Shown piece after piece: positions 2,699 through 60,733 of a stretch of 64,000 bases of DNA. The position numbers and the translations under genes are program-made. The notes under the pieces are model-generated. The model saw only the letters and a list, made by a program, of their open reading frames with translations, had not been told where the DNA came from and ran no database searches. Source of the DNA: Escherichia phage BYEP02; the sequence record OR757454.1. One strand, written 5' to 3'. The stretch's first letter is position 1, and each line of letters starts with the position of its first letter.

Positions 2699-5600
2699 TT
2701 ATGCTAAACGAACGATATAGTTAAAAGCAATGTTTTTAACCGTGTTTTCTGTATTACCTGTACTATTTACAGTGATAGTATGTCCGTGCGAACCAATAGC
2801 TACCGTGTGGGTATGAGCACCAATACCGACCGAATGGCTATGGGCACCGATACCTACAGTATGCGCGTGGTTACCCGTAGAGCTAGTAGTACCAGACCAA
2901 GTATGGGTATGGTTACCTTCTGTTGACGACTTTGCAATATATTGGCTTGTACCAGGCACAACACCGTTGCTTAGGCCAAAACCAACAACCAGGGTTCCGC
3001 TAATTCGAGTAGATCCATTAGGATATATTCCTGTGGGTTGATTATTAGTACCCCTTGGACCGGTTTGTGAGTGTTGGTGCGCACCAGCGGAACTAGTATT
3101 ACCACTCACTGTATGGCTATGGTTACCAGTGGTATTACTGGTCTTAGTACCATAATCAAAGCTTGAAGTCGTTTTGCTACCGTAATCAAAACTAGAAGTG
3201 GTCTTAGTACCCAAATCTGTGCTTGATGCACTTGCACTATGGCTATGTGACTTAACACCGTCTGCTTCTGTACTCAATACAGCACGCCCGGATGGTTTAC
3301 CCTTGATAGTTTGACCACGCATATCAGGCAGAGTGCCGGAAGGATACACCGCAGCTAACTTAGGATACAAGTCAGCATCAAATGTTTGACCTTCCATTAT
3401 GGCATAACCTTCAGGAGGTGTATCAGTAGGCCAAGGAATCGGAGCACCAATAGGATAACTTGAGACAATATCCGTCTTAAGGTTATTTATTGTGGTATTC
3501 AAGTTAGCAAAATTACCAGAACCACCTGTGATGTTACCGTCAGTACCAATTCGAATATTATTAATTTTAAGAGGCTTAGTAATATCGACTGTATCAGCAT
3601 TCAATGCAATGCCGTGGGAGTAAGTGTAATTATGCATACGAACAACATTACCACCATCGCCAATACCTAAATACCATTTTGTTACATCTGCTTTACGTCC
3701 TTGAATAAAGTTAGATGATGCTTGAGATGATGCGTTGAGCACAATACCGTCAGAATCCATGTTAACACGAAGTCTAACATCAGTCTGAACGAATTTTGAT
3801 ACATTATCAATAGTAAGCAAATTTTTTCCAGCTTGTGTATGATTACCAATCATAACACTGCCATTTGCAAGATTGATGGTAAATGGGCGTAAATTACTTA
3901 TTCCACCACTTTTACCAGCGTCTTTAAGAGTAGGAATAATATAAAAGCTAGTTTCTGAACGACGGAAAATAGCGCCGTATTCAGCATTCCAAATTCTCAA
4001 CGCATCTGCTGTTCCACCGAATTTAGCCTGACCATTTACAGATAATCCATTATTTGCAACTAAACTTGATTCAGTAACAATAGAACCAGATGATGTAATA
4101 CCACCAGAAGTTAATAAACCACCATTAACTCGAAATTGAATAGGTCCGACGGTAGAACCTGATCCGGGAGCAACTCGTTGAGAATAAAAATGGTAACCTT
4201 GTCCATCTGATACTTGAAAAACTGTTTCACGAGCACGATTGCCAGATGCATTAAAGGCATTACCCCATGCTTTGATAGATAGATAACTTTTATTCTGACC
4301 TGGGCGAGTACCGGCGGCCCACAATATAGTTTTAGTGCCATCTGTTGTTGTAGGAGCGTCAAGTTGAATACCATCGGGTCTAGCACCAGTAAGAACTAAT
4401 CTATAGTTTTAGTGCCATCTGTTGTTGTAGGAGCGTCAAGTTGAATACCGTCGGGTCTAGCACCAGTAAGAACTAATCCGTTATCAAATTTAATTCTTTG
4501 TATTGAAGATACTGTTCCGTCGGCATAAAACTGTACGTTATTAGAGCCAGTTACCAATTTCAAAATACCCGGGTTAACTTCCATGCCTTCTTGAGTATTA
4601 ATATTAGTTTTGCCTTTACCACGGAAATAGTGGTTCATTTTTCCGCCTGAGTTATAGCCAATATGTGTCTGACCGTCTCCAGCAGTGTTTTCATCAGCTT
4701 GTGTTTGAACTGATAAAAATGCAGCGTTCGTTCCAGGCATAATCCATGTTGTACCTTGGTCTTCTGAGCGTCCAAATATTGCTTTACGAGTACTACGGAA
4801 ACTATCAGGTGTGATAGATGCCAAAGATAAACCAGAACCAACGAAATCAAATACACCAGTTTTTCTATAAACTAGACCAGTTCCATTATCGCCTAAAGCA
4901 AGAAATATATTTCCTAGTGCCCCAGCATTTCCATAATCGCTTGACGGAAACCCTTGCGTCACAGTACCAATGGCCAAGCTATTGCGAATAATCATTCTAC
5001 CGTCGTTACGAATACCATATAGTTTAAATAACGGTGTATTACCAGTCCACCATGACATTTCATCTGCCAGTCCAGTCTGAGCTGTACAAATTTCATGGTA
5101 AATAGTTCCACCTGATTTAGCACGAACTTTACGAAGATAGTTTACGCCATTTGTTTCACCTGTTCCAGGATAAACATACTGAACTAATGACTGTGAATCA
5201 TATTGTCCAAAGGCTTTAGAATCGTGATTAATTAAATTAACACTAATAGTTGGTGTACTAATAGAAGTTAAAGCAGTTAATTTGCGTGCCTGGAAGATAC
5301 CACCATCAGTAGAAATGAAATGAAATTCTGAATTTTGAGCTCCCGCAGCGGTTCCTTGACGAACACGCATTGTAATTACGCCTTCATTTTCAGACTGCGG
5401 TTTTGAATATAAAACGCCACGTTCTGAGCCATTTGTATTTTCAAACCAAAGATGGGCATTTGCAGTATCGTTTGTTGCTCTTGCATAAAATGAACCCTGT
5501 GTAGATCTGAAAACTTTTGCTGTTACGCCATCAGTAGAACCAATAGGTCCATTTACAGTCATTCCACCCGTTTGTACATAATCGCCATTTAATCTCAAAA

Positions 5601-6473: not shown

Positions 6474-6496
6474 TGTATGCCCCTTTATTTTAATAG

Positions 6497-6504
6497 TATT
6501 TATA
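6497..6504 (-). promoter_or_regulatory. late promoter motif TATAAATA upstream of gene 36 (second copy at 6574-6581 inside duplication)
   Basis: TATTTATA on plus strand 24 nt upstream of gene 36 start. Confidence 0.5.
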
Positions 6505-6512
6505 AAGAAAAA

Positions 6513-6530
6513 GGGAGCCCGAAGGCTCCC
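6513..6530 (-). terminator. terminator hairpin after gene 35 (second, mutated copy at 6590-6607)
   Basis: GGGAGCCCGAAGGCTCCC followed on minus strand by T-run. Confidence 0.5.
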
Positions 6531-6612
6531 TCAATTTATACTTCTCTAAATTCTTGCCCCTTTATTTTAATAGTATTTATAAAGAAAAAGGGAACCCGAA
6601 GGCTCCCTCAAT

Positions 6613-7808
6613 TTATACTTCTCTAAATTCTTGCCCAAACACTTTACCAGTTTTAGACGATGCTTGTGTAGGAAGTACCATTATATCCGGAGGTGAAGCA
6701 GATTCGCAGATATAATTAACACGAATACCATTGACGCCAAATTCAGCAGGTTTTGAAATGCCGCCATTTCTTGATACTTCAGAAAAGCTTAAATTTCTCA
6801 TGCCACCTTGGCCAGCTTTAGCAGTTCTCTGTGCATATATCGTAAATCCTACTGCGTTTTCTGGAACAACTACATAATCTTCCTTTAATTCCCATGACCC
6901 AGCTTGCCCAGTAAATTCAGCTTGTGTCGAGGAAATATATCCATTTGATGCATTATAAAAACGGATAGATATATTTGTAGTTCCAAGAGCAAGTAAATCA
7001 GCATCGGCGTATAGCTGTGTTTTAAGATAAAGAACATCACCAGGAATTAAATTATAATCAGAGAGTTTACTTATTGCAGCCGAAGTTGGTAGACGCGCAA
7101 TTTCGTTATTAGTTCCACCAACCGCTGACATAAATTGCTCAACGCTTTCATACGTTCTTCTTGGAAAGCCGGTAGCTCCGACGTCTTCTAAACTGTCAAA
7201 TACAACATCTAAAATAGTTTGATAATCATCTGTGCTTTTTCTATTACTCAGTTTAACATGCTCTAATGCAATAGCTCTTTTAGAAGAAGTATAAAAAGCA
7301 GCATATGATACGTCGAATCTTGACAGTACAGAGTCAGATGGAAAAGCAGACGTTCCAGCGGTTCTTAGCCAAGATACTACCTCAGGAGGAAAATTAACCT
7401 TTCCACTGGTTAATATAGCAACAAGTCTGTTGTTTGAAAAAGAATTCATGAAACTAACAAAAGCAGCTGATGTAGTATCATTTGAAGTCGAAAAAGCATA
7501 TGACTTACTATCAACTAATGCTCCTGTAGAAGGGTCAAAAACTCTTAAATGAAGTCCTGCGCTAAATGTTTGACTTCCAACAGGATTATCCTGAAATTTA
7601 ACGTAGAAGGGTCAAAAACTCTTAAATGAAGTCCTGCGCTAAATGTTTGACTTCCAACAGGATTATCCTGAAATTTAACGTATGGTCCTTCTGCAGTAGA
7701 AAGCGGGCAAGAACCCGCTATACTTATTTTATATCTTACTGAATTGCTTTCCGATAAAAATGGCGTTTGGACATATCCTTGTCCAAACTCTGCCATAAAT
7801 TTTTCCAT
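6613..7808 (-). CDS. 35: gp35 long tail fibre hinge, frame broken by 77-bp duplication (7526-7679)
   Basis: MEKFMAEFGQGYVQTPFLSES... N-term and ...GQEFREV C-term; 372 aa after removing one repeat copy. Confidence 0.8.
7526..7679. repeat. 77-bp direct tandem duplication inside gene 35
   Basis: copies 7526-7602 and 7603-7679; identical. Confidence 0.9.
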
Positions 7809-7917: not shown

Positions 7918-10900
7918 AGTTTTATTCACTGGGTCAGGAATAATGCGAACATTACCAATTCGTAAGAAATCACGAATAGTAAGATTTCCCATTGTAGCAT
8001 TATCAGATGGTAAAGCACCGATATCAGACGGTTGAGGAGGGTTACCTCCGTCAAATACCTGAACAAAACTTGACCAAGAGTTTTTGGTTTTCTGCCATGT
8101 ACGTGTCCAGCGAGTGGTACGCGCTTCTGGCGTCGTTGGATAAGTAATCCAATCTTGGTAAAGCGAATCAAGTGTGTTACCAAACTGAGTCAGTGTACCA
8201 GGAGATTTAACTTCTTCTCCACGTTCTAAGTATGGAAGCCCAGTCACTTCATTAGTTTTTTCAACCATTTTAAAATAACCCGGAAACTGGTTATAAGTGG
8301 CTGAATCGTTAATATCAATTGACCAGAATCCTACAGTATCAGATGTTGGTGCACGGGTGTATAAATCAGATGTTTTAGTACCCTGAGAACGAATTCTCGA
8401 GTTAACAGTCAAACCACCTGAATTTATAGTAGCACCTTTGGCAATGATTAAGCTTTCACCAATCGTTACTTGGCCAGATGCATTATTAATTGATAATGGA
8501 CGTAATCCATTAAATCCGCCAGTCTGATCACCAGATGCAGTAAGCATAAAATATGTGCTACCGCCATCATTCCTGATAAAGAATCCATAATCACCATTTA
8601 TTGCTCTGAAAGCATTTGCAGACTTGCTAATGAATTCACCATTGGCTGTAACTGAACGACCGAATGTTGCAACACCATTCACATTCATCAAACCGGAAGC
8701 ATTAATGTTTATTGGCATTACAGTACCATTAATGCTAAACGCTATATTCCCATCTTTATTACGTTGAGAATAAAAATGATTAGACGTTTCATCACCAACT
8801 TCAAATACAGTAGAACGTGTTGTATCTGATCCGCCACCAAACTGATTTCCCCATACTCTGATAGTCATCGTCTGTGCTGGGTTAGTTCCAGTCTGAGGTC
8901 CTTTCTCAAAAATCAGACGAGTTGCCGTTCCAGTATTAGAAATAGTTAATGTACTATTTGCCGAAACTGATCCACCAAACGTAGCAGTACTAAATGATAC
9001 AAGAGGGGCACTCAGATTCATTTGTTGGGTTAAGGTTAGTGAACCATTAACCGTCTGTGCAATATCCCTACGAATGAACTGAGATGAATCTAGACCATCC
9101 AATAAATTTGTATCAGCAGCTTTTGCTTTTAACGGCAAATAATTTGCTAATACACGGTTTAATTCATATGGTGATACCGCATAGCTATTTTTCCAGCTTT
9201 TGCTTTTAACGGCAAATAATTTGCTAATACACGGTTTAATTCATATGGTGATACTGCATAGCTATTTTTCTCATACAGTTCTAAATCTTGTGTAGAACCG
9301 ACTGTATCATTACCAACGAATGTAATTGAACCAGATGAAGTTTTAACAAAACCTCTTATCGCAGTAGTAGCTGCCCAAGTAGGTTCACTCTGCACAATCC
9401 ATTTTAAATTTTTTGGAGATACAGCAGTGTTCGCTGACGTTCCAGTCACAGTTTCAGACTGGGTTGCAACTTTAATAACACCTTCCTGTGCTTCAGTAGA
9501 TTTAGTACCTAAAAGCTTTTTAGGAGTTATTAAAACATTATCTAATGTTCCTGCAGCAGCTTCAACTTGTGTAGCTACACGAAGTGTACCGCGCTGTGTC
9601 TCATTTGCTTCAAGAATATTAAGTGTATAATGGTCCCAGAGAGTTCCTGATTCAACTAATCCAGATAGAGCAACAACAGAAGTACGATCAGTACTATTAA
9701 ATCTAGTTTTAATTTTTAATGGTGTAGAGATACGAGTATCGTCGACGCCTGCGTCGAATTCAACTTGTGTAGCAATTTCAGCTATACCACTTAAACTTTC
9801 AGTTGCTCTACGGTCATTTAAAGTTTTAGGAGTGACTGCACGAGTATAATCAGTCCCAGCATTAGTTTCTGCTTGCGTAGCAATTTCAATTAAACCAATT
9901 CTTCCATCAGTTGATGTCTTTTTATGTAACGTTTCTGGCGTTACAACAGCATTTGCCCATCCTTGCTGACTTTGTCCAGCAATTACTTCACTTTCAACTG
10001 CTAAAATTACTGCACCCTGTTGAGTAGGCGTAGCTTTATACTGATCCAAAGCTTTAGGCGAAACAACTAAATTATTAGTGTTTTTATTATAAACATTCGT
10101 ACCATTTAATTCACGGCTAGAAGCTGGAGTAGCACCTGCAGTAGATACAAAAGTTACAATACCAGATAATGATTCAGAACCTTGACGAGCTTGAAGCTTT
10201 TTAGGAGTGATGATTGTAGTATCATCAAAGTTACAATACCAGATAATGATTCAGAACCTTGACGAGCTTGAAGCTTTTTAGGAGTGATGATTGTAGTATC
10301 ATCGGTTCCTGTATTAGTTTCTTGCTGCGTAGCAATTTCAGCAACACCTCTGCGAGTTTCTGTAGCAGTTCTTTCATTCAGCTTTTTAGGAGTAATGATA
10401 AGGTCATCTGCAAAAGAGAATGTGGTGTTCTGATTCACTTGAGCAGTAGTTGCTATTCTTGCGATACCTCTACGAGTTTCTGTAGCAGTACGGTTAGCTA
10501 ATGTTTCTGGAGTAATTGCTAATTCTTTTTGTGGAGAATTTTCTAAATCGACGTTAGCTTGAGCTTGTGTAGCTAAAGCAATTACGCCTAATCTTGCTCT
10601 AGTAGAATCATTTAAAGAATCAACTCTTTCTACAGTTGGAACATTTTGTTGCACAACCCAGTATTTTCCATCAGAATCTTCTATATAAGCAAGTTGTAAA
10701 ACTGGAACATAATTAGTTTCACCATTAAAAACTAATTCTTGAACTGTTACCCATTCAGCCTCAGGCAGATATTCTGAGCGTTTTGGGAATTGCAGCAATT
10801 GAACTGAAGAAGCAATTTTATCTTCACCGGCAGCTTTGATTTTAACTGTTTGTCCTTTTCTCATGTAATTCATGGAAATTTTAACAGTATCACCAACAGA

Positions 10901-16863: not shown

Positions 16864-18137
<1,274 letters not shown>

Positions 18138-28292: not shown

Positions 28293-28606
28293 ATGCTAAG
28301 TGAAAAACCAATTACTGTTAAAGAATTCCAAGAAAAAGTTAAACTATTTGCTCAGGAATTGGTAAATAAGGTTTCTGAACGATTTCCAGAAACATCGGTT
28401 CGTGTCAAGAAAAAGTTAAACTATTTGCTCAGGAATTGGTAAATAAGGTTTCTGAACGATTTCCTGAAACATCGGTTCGTGTTATTACCGAAACTCCTCG
28501 TTCAGTATTAGTAATTGTGAATCCAGGCGATGGCGATCAAATAACACATCTCAAATTGGATTTTGATGGATTAGTTGAAGCACAAAGGGTGTATGGCGTA
28601 CTATGA
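28293..28606 (+). CDS. hypothetical small protein, frame broken by 77-bp duplication (28329-28482)
   Basis: ATG 28293 MLSEKPITVKEFQEKVKLFAQELVNKVSERFPETSVRV...; 78 codons after removing one repeat copy. Confidence 0.4.
28329..28482. repeat. 77-bp direct tandem duplication inside small ORF
   Basis: copies 28329-28405 and 28406-28482; 1 mismatch. Confidence 0.9.
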
Positions 28607-32754: not shown

Positions 32755-32957
32755 ATATAATTAATAAGATTTTTGGAATTCAGTACATTAAGGTCACATA
32801 TAAAGTAACAGATAAAAATCCATATACTGATGAACATGAAGAACCACGAGTTGAGTCTATTATATTAGAAAAGGACCCTAACTGGCCAGTTGAATTTCGT
32901 CTTCCTTGCTATGGTCATTGGGCTGATGTTGAAATTATAAGCATTGAAAATGTCTGA
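32751..32957 (+). CDS. hypothetical protein (68 aa)
   Basis: ORF track. Confidence 0.35.
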   Translation: MNIINKIFGIQYIKVTYKVTDKNPYTDEHEEPRVESIILEKDPNWPVEFRLPCYGHWADVEIISIENV

Positions 32958-33485
32958 GTTAGAGATTAGAAGCAATTTTAGGTGGCCATCATGTGCATTA
33001 AGTAATTTCGCCCAATGGCCTTTCGTTATGGATGGTATTCAATTTGGAGGTCTTGAAGGATTCCTCCAAGGATGCAAGGTGAAAAACGTTGAACAACAAC
33101 GTCGTATATTTGGGTTATCTGGGCTTGCCGCTCAACAAGCTGGAAGGTCTTATGCTAGAGCTCAGGACCGTGGGACCCTCTTCTGGCTTGGAGTTCCGTT
33201 TTCAAGATACTCCCCGGCGTGGAAAGAATTATACACAAATGCATATTTTGAAGCAGCGTTCCAAAACAAGGGTTTTCGCGATGCATTACAAGCCTCGAAA
33301 GGAAAAGTTTTGAAGCACAGCATGGCTAGTGGTCTAACAAAAGATGATACTTTCGTGATGCATTACAAGCCTCGAAAGGAAAAGTTTTGAAGCACAGCAT
33401 GGCTAGTGGTCTAACAAAAGATGATACAATACTAACCGAAGCTGAATTTATTGATGTGTTAAACCTATTAAGAGACTCTCTATGA
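32944..33485 (+). CDS. NADAR/YbiA-like (DUF1768-like) protein, frame broken by 77-bp duplication (33274-33427)
   Basis: motif WPSCALSNFAQWPFVMDGIQFGGLEGFLQGCKV resembles NADAR core (SNF...F..DG..F...E.F.Q..K) as recalled; 154 aa after removing one repeat copy. Confidence 0.45.
33274..33427. repeat. 77-bp direct tandem duplication inside NADAR-like ORF
   Basis: copies 33274-33350 and 33351-33427; 1 mismatch. Confidence 0.9.
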
Positions 33486-36287: not shown

Positions 36288-38612
36288 ATGGAACTAATTA
36301 CAGAATTATTTGACGAAGATACTACTCTTCCGATTACAAACTTAAATCCAAAGAAGAAAATACCACAAATTTTTTCAGTTCATGTTGATGACGCAATTGA
36401 ACAACCAGGCTTTCGTTTATGTACCTATACATCTGGAGGTGATACTAATCGTGATTTAAAGATGGGCGATAAAATGATGCACATTGTTCCTTTTACATTA
36501 ACTGCTAAAGGTTCAATTGCTAAATTGAAAGGTCTTGGTCCAAGCCCAATTAATTATATCAATTCAGTTTTTACTGTTGCAATGCAAACAATGCGTCAGT
36601 ATAAAATTGATGCCTGCATGCTTCGTATTCTTAAGTCTAAAACCGCTGGTCAAGCTCGACAAATTCAAGTTATTGCTGATAGACTTATCCGTAGTCGTTC
36701 AGGTGGCAGATACGTCCTTCTTAAGGAACTCTGGGATTATGATAAAAAGTATGCATATATTCTTATACATCGCAAAAATGTATCACTAGAAGACATTCCA
36801 GGAGTTCCGGAAATTAGTACCGAGCTCTTTACTAAAGTTGAATCGAAGGTCGGTGATGTTTATATCAATAAAGATACTGGAGCTCAAGTAACTAAAAATG
36901 AGGCAATTGCAGCATCTATTGCAAGGTCGGTGATGTTTATATCAATAAAGATACTGGAGCTCAAGTAACTAAAAATGAGGCAATTGCAGCATCTATTGCA
37001 CAAGAAAACGATAAACGTTCTGACCAAGCTGTAATCGTTAAAGTTAAAATTTCCCGTAGAGCAATTGCACAAAGTCAATCATTAGAGTCTTCTAGATTTG
37101 AAAGTGAATTATTCCAGAAGTATGAATCTACAGCAGCTAATTTTAATAAACCAGCTACTGCACCTTTAATTCCCGAAGCAGAAGAAATGAAAATTGGAAT
37201 TAATTCATTAGCTTCTAAAACTAAGGCAGCAAAAATCATTGCCGAAGGAACTGCAGATGAACTTCATTATGACTATAAATTCTTTTCAAAAAGTGAGGTT
37301 AATGAAGTTTCTGAAAAAATTAAAGATGTAATTCTTAATGCGATTAAAAATGAACCAACCACTTCAATAAAATGTTTAGAGAAATACGCAGCAGCTGTTA
37401 ATCAATTCTTTGAAGAATATAAAGATAATTGGCTTGATAAACATAATAAAACACGTAAAGGACAGCCAGATGAAGTCTGGGAAGAAATAACTAAAAATTC
37501 CTGGAACGCGACAAAAACTAAATTCCTCAAAAGAATGATTTATAGTTTCTCTGGAATTGGTGCAGGTCCAATGATTGATATTACTATTGCCCGTGATGGT
37601 TCTAAATATACTCCATCACAAAAGCGCGGCATTAGAGAGTATTGCGGTTCAGGATATACTGACATCAATAATCTTCTTTTAGGACGCTACAATCCAGAAC
37701 GATATGATGTAATGAGTGAAAAAGAAATTGAATCTGCTATAAATAACTTAGATTCAGCTTTTGAAAATGGTGACCGCATACCGGAAGGCATCACAGTTTA
37801 TCGTGCTCAAAGCATGACTGCTCCTATATACGAAGCATTAGTTAAAAATAAAGTATTCTATTTCAGAAATTTTGTATCTACTTCTTTAACTCCTATCATT
37901 TTTGGACGTTTTGGATAGTTAAAAATAAAGTATTCTATTTCAGAAATTTTGTATCTACTTCTTTAACTCCTATCATTTTTGGACGTTTTGGAATTACACA
38001 TGCTGGTATTGGTCTTTTAGAACCAGAAGCTCGCAATGAATTAACAGTTGATAAAAATGAAGAAGGAATAACTATTAATCCAAACGAAATAAGAGCGTAT
38101 AAAGAAAATCCTGAATACGTTAAAGTTCAAATAGGATGGGCAATTGATGGAGCAATCCAAACGAAATAAGAGCGTATAAAGAAAATCCTGAATACGTTAA
38201 AGTTCAAATAGGATGGGCAATTGATGGAGCTCATAAAGTTAATGTTGTATATCCAGGAAGTCTCGGAATAGCAACAGAAGCTGAAGTTATTCTACCGCGT
38301 GGATTGATGGTCAAAGTTAATAAAATAACTGATGCTTCTAATAATGACGGAACAACATCTAATAATACAAAACTCATTCAAGCTGAAGTTATGACCACGG
38401 AAGAGCTCACCGAATCGGTAATCTATGATGGAGACCATTTAATGGAAACTGGTGAATTGGTTGCAATGACAGGTGATATTGAAATAGAAGACAGAGTTGA
38501 CTTTGCATCATTTGTTTCATCAAATGTTAAACAGAAAGTAGAATCATCTCTTGGAATTATTGCGTCTTGCATAGATATTGCAAACATGCCTTACAAGTTC
38601 GTTCAAGGATAA
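36288..38612 (+). CDS. alt: Alt ADP-ribosyltransferase (packaged), frame broken by three 77-bp duplications
   Basis: MELITELFDEDTTLPITNLNPKKKIPQIF... through ...IANMPYKFVQG; pieces 36285.., 37187.., 38304..38612. Confidence 0.85.
36846..36999. repeat. 77-bp direct tandem duplication inside alt
   Basis: copies 36846-36922 and 36923-36999; identical. Confidence 0.9.
37839..37992. repeat. 77-bp direct tandem duplication inside alt
   Basis: copies 37839-37915 and 37916-37992; identical. Confidence 0.9.
38077..38230. repeat. 77-bp direct tandem duplication inside alt
   Basis: copies 38077-38153 and 38154-38230; identical. Confidence 0.9.
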
Positions 38613-47855: not shown

Positions 47856-48163
47856 TTAAAAGCTTTCTTCTACTTCATCGTCTGAATCTTCTAATTCAGC
47901 TCTTTTTCCTGCCAAAGCATCTCTCACAGAGATGTCATCAGTATCTTTTAATTCAGTTTCTTTGACTCTTTTCTTGTAATAAGCTTCAAGTTCTTCTAAA
48001 CCTTCTAATGTTTGACAAGAGGCAATTTTACCCATAAATTCATCAATAGAAGCTTCATAAAGAAATTGTTTAAATTACCTTCTAATGTTTGACAAGAGGC
48101 AATTTTACCCATAAATTCATCAATAGAAGCTTCATAAAGAAATTGTTTAAATCCTAGTAACAT
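47856..48163 (-). CDS. UvsW.1-like small protein, frame broken by 77-bp duplication (48000-48153)
   Basis: MLLGFKQFLYEASIDEFMGKIASCQTLEGL...; 76 aa after removing one repeat copy. Confidence 0.5.
48000..48153. repeat. 77-bp direct tandem duplication inside uvsW.1-like ORF
   Basis: copies 48000-48076 and 48077-48153; 1 mismatch. Confidence 0.9.
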
Positions 48164-50671: not shown

Positions 50672-52167
50672 ATGACTTTTACAGTTGATATAACTCCTAA
50701 AACACCTACTGGAGTTATAGATGAGACTAAGCAGTTTACTGCTACGCCCAGTGGTCAAACTGGAGATGGACCTATTACCTATGCTTGGACTGTTGATGAT
50801 GCACCGCAGGAAGAAACGTCTGCAACTTTTAGTTATGTACTAAAAGGTCCTGCTGGACAAAAGACTATTAAGGTAGTTGCAACAAATCCAGTTCCTGATT
50901 CTGAAGCTGAAACAGCTGAAATTAGTACAACTATCACAGTTCAAAATAAGACACAAACAACTACTTTAGCTGTAACTCCTGGTAGCCCTGATGCTGGAGT
51001 GATTGGAACTCCAATTGAATTTACCGCTGCCTTAGCTTCACAGCCATCAGGTGCAAACGCTACATATCAATGGTACGTTGACGGTTCTCCTGTGGGCGAA
51101 GCAACTGGCACTACATTCAATTACACTCCTGACGCAAGCGGAGTTAAAACAATTAAGTGTGTAGCTCAAGTAACCGCGACAGATTATGATGCAAAGGAAG
51201 TTACTTCTAATGAAGTGTCACTGACTGTTAATAAGAAAACACAGACAACTACGTTAGCCGTAACTCCTGCTAATCCTCCAGCAGGAGTTATTGGAACCCC
51301 AGTTCAATTTACTGCTACCTTGGCTTCACAGCCACCAGGAGCGTCTGCTACGTATCAGTGGTATGTTGACGGTTCTCTGGTCGATGGAGAAACTACTACT
51401 ACATTTAACTATACTCCTACCACAGTTGGAGCTAAAACAGTTAAGTGTGTAGCGCAAGTAACTGCAGAAAATTACAATGAAAAGGAAGTTACTTCTAATG
51501 AAGTATCATTGACTGTTAATAAGAAAACAATGAATCCACGGGTTACATTGACTCCTCCTTCTATTAACGTTCAGCAAGATGCTTCGGCTACATTTACTGC
51601 TAATGTTACGGATGCTCCAGAAGAAGCACAAATCGAATATTCATGGAAGAAAGATTCTTCTCCAGTAGAAGGGTCAACTAATGTATACACTGTTGATACA
51701 TCATCTATTGGAAGTCAAACTATTGAAGTTACTGCAACTATTACTGCAACTGATTACGATAGCAAAACTATTACAGCAGAAGGTCAAGTTCAGGTAACTG
51801 ATAAAGTTGCTCCGGAACCAGAAGGTGAATTACCTTATGTTCATCCTCTTCCACATCGCACTTCAGCTTATATCTTGATAAAGTTGCTCCAGAACCAGAA
51901 GGTGAATTGCCTTATGTTCATCCTCTTCCACATCGCACTTCAGCTTACATCTGGTGCGGTTGGTGGGTTATGGATGAAATCCAAAAAATGACCGAAGAAG
52001 GTAAAGATTGGAAAACTGAAGATCCAGATAGTAAGTACTACTTGCATCGTTACACTCTTCAGAAGATGATGAAAGACTATCCAGAAGTTGATGTCCAAGA
52101 ATCGCGTAATGGATACATCATTCATAAAACTGCTTTAGAAACTGGTATCATCTATACCTATCCATAA
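50672..52167 (+). CDS. hoc: Hoc outer capsid decoration protein with four tandem Ig-like domains, frame broken by 77-bp duplication (51799-51952)
   Basis: MTFTVDITPKTPTGVIDETKQFTATPSG...; ORF pieces 50672..51991 and 51907..52167 join to 472 aa after removing one repeat copy. Confidence 0.85.
50946..51527 (+). repeat. intragenic tandem repeat of about 290 bp encoding Ig-like domains 2 and 3 of Hoc
   Basis: two in-frame units starting near 50946 and 51231, roughly 85 percent identical by eye (TQTTTLAVTPGSPDAGVIGTP... vs TQTTTLAVTPANPPAGVIGTP...). Confidence 0.7.
51799..51952. repeat. 77-bp direct tandem duplication inside hoc
   Basis: copies 51799-51875 and 51876-51952; 3 mismatches. Confidence 0.9.

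Positions 52168-59031: not shown

Positions 59032-60733
<1,702 letters not shown>

Follow-up and report, generated by a model that had tools for sequence, protein, structure and literature searches.

Gene 30.3 and Its Surroundings

The locus lies in a 64-kb stretch of Escherichia phage BYEP02 DNA (OR757454.1), the whole of which we refer to as the window. As assembled, it appears in the ORF listing as two + strand reading frames: one of 148 aa with a TTG start (32944..33390), followed by one of 32 aa (33387..33485). Two repeat finders located a head-to-tail tandem duplication of 77 nt in the same interval (Table 1). Removing one copy, whichever of the two is chosen, leaves a single ORF, 32950..33485 minus 77 nt, of 459 nt and 152 aa that ends in ...KDDTILTEAEFIDVLNLLRDSL. 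Because 77 is not divisible by three, the assembled frame is lost after T134, and the literal protein ends instead in ...KDDTFVMHYKPRKEKF. A full-length protein with its C-terminal helix is thus present once the presumed artifactual copy is taken out, and absent if the assembly is read literally.

An earlier, sequence-only reading of this DNA had also discarded one copy, and correctly so: the repeat is one of 29 probable assembly artifacts in the window. The 154-aa length which that reading gave holds when residues are counted from the TTG at 32944, but the annotations of T4 and its relatives start the orthologs at the equivalent of the ATG at 32950, a codon that shares bases with the preceding gene's stop, and the protein is then 152 aa long. 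The NADAR-like motif that it quoted, WPSCALSNFAQWPFVMDGIQFGGLEGFLQGCKV, is present at residues 12-44, numbering from this ATG.

Table 1. Positions of the features of the 30.3 locus and of the duplicated blocks in the window
Feature	Position	Strand	Remarks
Gene 30.3 / adfN as assembled	32950..33485	+	536 nt, including one 77-nt copy judged spurious
Probable true CDS of 30.3 / adfN	32950-33350 joined to 33428-33485	+	459 nt, 152 aa
E36 codon GAA	33055..33057	+	catalytic glutamate (NADAR core); no variation among the 89 aligned sequences
K43 codon AAG	33076..33078	+	catalytic lysine; at least 90% conserved
H123 codon CAC	33316..33318	+	invariant; inside the duplicated segment, with a second occurrence at 33393-33395
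C-terminal helix, residues 135-152, ILTEAEFIDVLNLLRDSL	33428..33485	+	out of frame as assembled; helix at 138-151 in the model
Second 77-nt copy, judged spurious	33351..33427	.	first copy 33274-33350; read as a k=77 contig overlap left untrimmed
Nested +1-frame ORF 30.3'	33089..33313	+	74 aa, with TTG as its start here; separate from the enzyme
154-nt duplicated blocks, approximate starts	4325, 6478, 7525, 7763, 9117, 10149, 14690, 15227, 17610, 20012, 25763, 28329, 31793, 33274, 36845, 37838, 38076, 42272, 43882, 47461, 47999, 48356, 48665, 50402, 51799, 54239, 59889, 62750, 63305		

The de-duplicated protein matched the Pfam family PF08010 (Bacteriophage protein GP30.3, Phage_30_3) over the entire profile (1-138 of 138; E 8.6e-70, 233 bits against a cut-off of 36) and also phrog_652 (E 1.9e-51). 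The gene is carried by 735 phage records, nearly all from Tevenvirinae, and 104 homologs were found for the protein; together with the profile match, these figures place the predicted ORF far beyond chance. The de-duplicated coding sequence is identical at 459 of 459 nt to that of Escherichia phage BYEP01, so that this very allele is already in GenBank. Against T4 gp30.3 (NP_049816), likewise 152 aa long, 150 of the 152 residues are identical (98.7%), the differences being I104F and I125M.

The order of ORFs in the window, 30.4-30.3-30.2-30.1-gene 30 (DNA ligase, 487 aa)-alt, is the one annotated in both Shigella phage vB_SsoM_113 and T4 (NC_000866), and the T4 gene, now named adfN, occupies the same position between 30.4 and 30.2. 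E36, K43, H123 and the C-terminal helix of T4 AdfN are all found in the window protein after de-duplication; what distinguishes the window from T4 is the pair of substitutions and, as assembled, the spurious 77-nt repeat. To judge from these comparisons, the window has at this locus an intact 30.3, an early gene of Tequatrovirus. With 30.4 and 30.2 as its neighbors, the gene has no darT beside it and lies outside any DarTG1 toxin-antitoxin operon; it is an orphan antitoxin-like gene rather than a member of such an operon. Farther downstream, past the ligase and about 3 kb from the NADAR gene, lies alt (36103 onward, + strand), which encodes the phage's own ADP-ribosyltransferase; vB_SsoM_113 has two tandem alt paralogs.

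A second reading frame, 30.3', is nested within the gene. It matches PF11097 (DUF2883; E 3.9e-48) and is described in the T4 annotation as 'internal translation, in a different reading frame, within gene 30.3'. T4, vB_SsoM_113, Bp7, and VR20 have this frame open, whereas in JS09 an internal stop interrupts it; the start codon also varies, being TTG in the window and ATG in T4. PF11097 may be a shadow cast by adfN and not a family of real proteins.

Family Membership and Predicted Fold

The sequence-only reading had assigned the protein to the NADAR (DUF1768/YbiA) group, an assignment now backed by the family profile, the predicted fold, and the conservation of catalytic residues. The window protein by itself did not reach the NADAR profile PF08719 in a Pfam hmmscan at E<=10, in which PF08010 was the sole match, and a phmmer search of PDB sequences with this protein alone returned no NADAR, its only hit being a chance match to 3rjz (E 0.82). 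The similarity to PF08719 that had been anticipated was therefore not found directly, but it did emerge at the level of the family and of structure. When 89 full-length homologs out of the 104 found were aligned, all 89 matched PF08010 and 13 of them also matched PF08719, with a best E of 1.5e-07; several homologs bear the JGI name 'YbiA (DUF1768 family)'. A profile built from the family matched E. coli YbiA (PDB 2b3w) with E 0.0059 over the SNF...EGF..K core. In this alignment the phage SNF..EGF..K pairs with SNF..SEHY..QK of YbiA, and E36 and K43 stand opposite the Glu and Lys of YbiA. The NADAR connection of the window protein would accordingly be transitive rather than direct, appearing only through its family and its modeled structure.

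The 89-sequence alignment shows no variation at P13, A16, L17, S18, N19, F20, F25, E36, G37, F38, Q40, Q50, A61, H123, L136, and T137, and K43 is at least 90% conserved, which bears out the expected conservation of catalytic positions. A few metagenomic homologs (P0030 and P0032) are 201 aa long.

Structural comparison was made with an AlphaFold2 model of the homolog P0003, which stands in for the window protein (152 aa, 87% identical, same numbering) and was computed from 88 sequences. The model has a mean pLDDT of 93.4 and a pTM of 0.89; in it, H123 directly follows a strand at residues 120-122, and the C-terminal helix spans residues 138-151. When the model was compared with the PDB using Foldseek, the best match was YbiA (2b3w; E 8.3e-05, TM 0.69), joined by the Phytophthora nicotianae NADAR with ADP-ribose (8bau; probability 1.00) and the Geobacter lovleyi NADAR (8bat; probability 0.97). 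All remaining PDB matches had probabilities of at most 0.03, leaving the three solved NADARs as the only confident ones, in line with the earlier suggestion that such a model be set against NADAR structures.

Within this fold, the phage proteins form a type of their own. Phage NADARs have a His in the last strand where YbiA-type enzymes have Glu and DarT-associated ones have Asp (PMC11125620), and the invariant H123 corresponds to this distinguishing His of the gp30.3-type proteins. YbiA, although the best structural match to the phage model and within reach of the family profile (E 0.006), shares only 18% identity, and its last strand carries Glu; its gene belongs to the host, in an operon under LexA control, and a link to the hydrolysis of riboflavin intermediates has been described. 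The DarG1-type NADAR antitoxins (8bat; BC4488 family) are reported to be the nearest relatives of the phage clade (PMC11257639). They share with AdfN the NADAR fold and the hydrolysis of guanine-linked ADP-ribose on DNA, but sequence identity is about 16%, AdfN has His123 where DarT-associated NADARs have Asp, and AdfN is an orphan, with no adjoining darT, that fails to neutralize DarT1 in uninfected cells.

Probable Role in Escape from DarTG1

For the T4 ortholog, work that appeared from 2023 to 2025 has already described the gene and its fold, the catalytic residues, the activity, and the role against DarTG1. Schuller et al. 2023 (Mol Cell 83:2303) are credited, in a passage of PMC11257639, with the first bioinformatic call of T4 30.3 as a NADAR. 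Cihlova 2024 showed that T4 gp30.3 hydrolyzes guanine-linked ADP-ribose in vitro (PMC11125620). Johannesman, Carlson & LeRoux 2024 placed the DarTG1 resistance of T-even phages in gene 30.3 by phage crosses and renamed it adfN; the gene proved both necessary and sufficient for escape of T4 and T2 from DarTG1, and T4 and T2 lacking it plaqued four logs less efficiently on DarTG1 (PMC11257639). The same study found that DarT1-modified DNA loses its ADP-ribose with purified AdfN, that AdfN neither binds DarT1 nor counters DarTG2, and that it appears adapted to hydroxymethylcytosine DNA (PMC11257639). RB69, whose natural allele carries a one-base (T) insertion that leaves the protein 15 residues short and without its terminal helix, and goes with sensitivity to DarTG1, was rescued by T4 AdfN in trans, and either E36A or K43A abolished this rescue (PMC11257639). 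The construct used in PMC11125620 is given in its Methods as 'residues 1-208' of T4 gp30.3, against 152 aa in the T4 annotation.

The reversal of DarT-type guanine ADP-ribosylation that the sequence-only reading had proposed as a counter-defense is, in other words, published for an ortholog 98.7% identical to the window protein (PMC11257639, PMC11125620). By analogy with T4, the window protein would have the same enzymatic activity and the same anti-DarTG1 role. Neither I104F nor I125M falls on a conserved catalytic position, and a deposited phage has this very allele; we therefore infer that it should be fully active. In the mechanism established for the ortholog, which would hold for this allele too, the DarT1 toxin of a DarTG1 host ADP-ribosylates guanine in phage DNA and so blocks replication. 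AdfN, made early in infection, hydrolyzes the N-glycosidic bond between ADP-ribose and guanine by means of E36, K43, and the phage-specific H123, and replication is restored. The window protein would thus behave as an 'orphan antitoxin' of a type-IV-like kind, supplied by the phage and acting without binding the toxin.

We also considered that the protein, while a NADAR, might serve mainly in something other than countering DarT1, either as a YbiA-like hydrolase of riboflavin intermediates or as a reverser of the marks made by Alt, ModA, or ModB. The rank of YbiA as best structural match and the proximity of alt could be taken in that sense, as could the finding that neither T4 gp30.3 nor YbiA shields uninfected E. 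coli against DarT1 (PMC11125620, PMC11257639); this failure, however, has been ascribed to a preference for hydroxymethylated phage DNA (PMC11257639). Against such a main role stand the four-log cost that adfN deletion imposes on T4 and T2 under DarTG1 and the lack of rescue by catalytic mutants (PMC11257639), as well as the His that replaces the Glu of the YbiA family throughout the phage clade and the clustering of this clade nearest to the DarG1-type NADARs (PMC11125620, PMC11257639). We therefore consider a different main role very unlikely. A YbiA-like or Alt/Mod-reversing function may be a secondary role. That AdfN-type NADARs have a second substrate, which may be Alt-type ADP-ribose or RNAylation marks or the adducts of other guanine-targeting toxins, strikes us as unlikely.

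Broken alleles of adfN occur in public assemblies. In P0014 and P0016 the adfN frame is joined in a hybrid with that of 30.3', while P0015 fuses the N-terminus of gp30.7 to the C-terminus of AdfN, which implies a deletion of 30.6-30.4; 5'-truncated adfN calls are also present among the database homologs P0014, P0015, P0016, P0007, and P0017. Such alleles fit an accessory counter-defense gene that is often lost, and some of them may be sequencing errors.

The 77-nt Duplications across the Window

Screening the entire window for tandem duplications turned up 29, every one of exactly 77 nt, while the other periods tested (60-99, 21, 33, 55, and 127) gave none; a stricter scan allowing at most one mismatch retained 25 of the 29. 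The genes that hold them include 32 (single-strand DNA-binding protein), nrdA, frd, 29, 27 (baseplate hub), uvsW, hoc, and alt, which has three (at 36845, 37838, and 38076), among others. For the duplications covered by a 40-kb stretch fetched from vB_SsoM_113, the de-duplicated sequence aligned with that phage end to end, in most cases gaplessly, at 89-99% identity; given these gapless alignments, vB_SsoM_113 is therefore single-copy each time. At the 30.3 site, the junction between the copies (33350/33351) reads GATGATAC abutting TTTCGTGATG, also given as ...AAAGATGATAC abutting TTTCGTGATGC..., and was not found in any phage record. The duplication itself is absent from all phage records among the matches listed, each of which spans 77 nt less than the query.

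The value of 77 is a standard maximum k-mer length for assemblers that use de Bruijn graphs, SPAdes among them. Adjoining contigs in such a graph overlap by exactly k, and joining them without trimming produces a 77-nt tandem pattern. From T4 genetics, a frameshift of +77 in genes 32, 27, or 29 is incompatible with a viable phage. Because there are 29 duplications of one length, no other period is represented, and essential genes are affected, we infer that the duplications are untrimmed k=77 contig overlaps and not phage DNA.

In seven of the 25 strictly scored duplications the two copies differ by one mismatch. Pairs with a single-base difference are seen, for example, at 4325-4478, 6478-6631, 9117-9270, 17610-17763, 28329-28482, 33274-33427, 47999-48152, and 59889-60042. 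The sole mismatch at 30.3 is C at 33279 versus T at 33356, and each allele has a counterpart among relatives, with T in T4 and C in vB_SsoM_113. These one-base differences suggest that closely related Tequatrovirus strains were mixed in the material assembled, and the record may be a chimera of them; contig breaks at the polymorphic sites of a mixed sample would fit the mismatched copies.

If the duplication in 30.3 were real, the frame would shift after T134, the C-terminal helix would become FVMHYKPRKEKF, and the gene would be an RB69-like null that could revert by recombination between the repeats. This is how the given sequence literally reads; the copies do differ at one base, whereas an exact k-mer overlap would be identical, and broken adfN alleles exist, in RB69 (a frameshift) and in P0014, P0016, and P0015. 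Yet 28 more duplications of the same length occur within 64 kb, several of them in the essential genes 32, 27, and 29, a carrier of all 29 could not be viable, and their length is that of a standard assembler k-mer. The junction, moreover, is known from no phage record, and the de-duplicated gene is 100% identical to that of a deposited phage. We regard a real duplication as extremely unlikely, and likewise its acting as a recombination-reversible off switch for the gene. The literal reading mimics the truncation of RB69 gp30.3 in its loss of the C-terminal helix, but in RB69 the truncation comes from one inserted T in a real genome, whereas the lesion in the window is most probably an assembly artifact. 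Interpretation of the duplication as a real null mutation like that of RB69 was rejected on account of the 29 equal-length duplications, some in essential genes. That the T4 reference might itself be duplicated, with 30.3' as the second piece, was likewise rejected: T4 30.3 is single-copy at 459 nt and 30.3' is a nested +1 frame.

One repeat in the window is of another kind. In hoc (50672..51991, + strand), which encodes the head-decoration protein Hoc, a 288-nt tandem repeat at 50936-51511 (78% identity) corresponds to two successive Ig-like domains and is, unlike the 77-mers, a genuine ancient duplication. The 3' end of the same ORF is disrupted by a 77-nt artifact at 51799-51952.

Implications

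Together, these results indicate that the locus is almost certainly an intact adfN, encoding a 152-aa, stand-alone NADAR-fold DNA ADP-ribosylglycohydrolase directed against DarTG1, and that the 77-nt duplication within it is a contig overlap of k-mer length. Every gene in the window that holds a 77-nt duplication reads as frameshifted or split, and calls of truncated, split, or duplicated genes made from this window are suspect until compared with the blocks in Table 1. Anyone taking the sequence literally would mistake adfN for a null allele and wrongly expect a phage sensitive to DarTG1.
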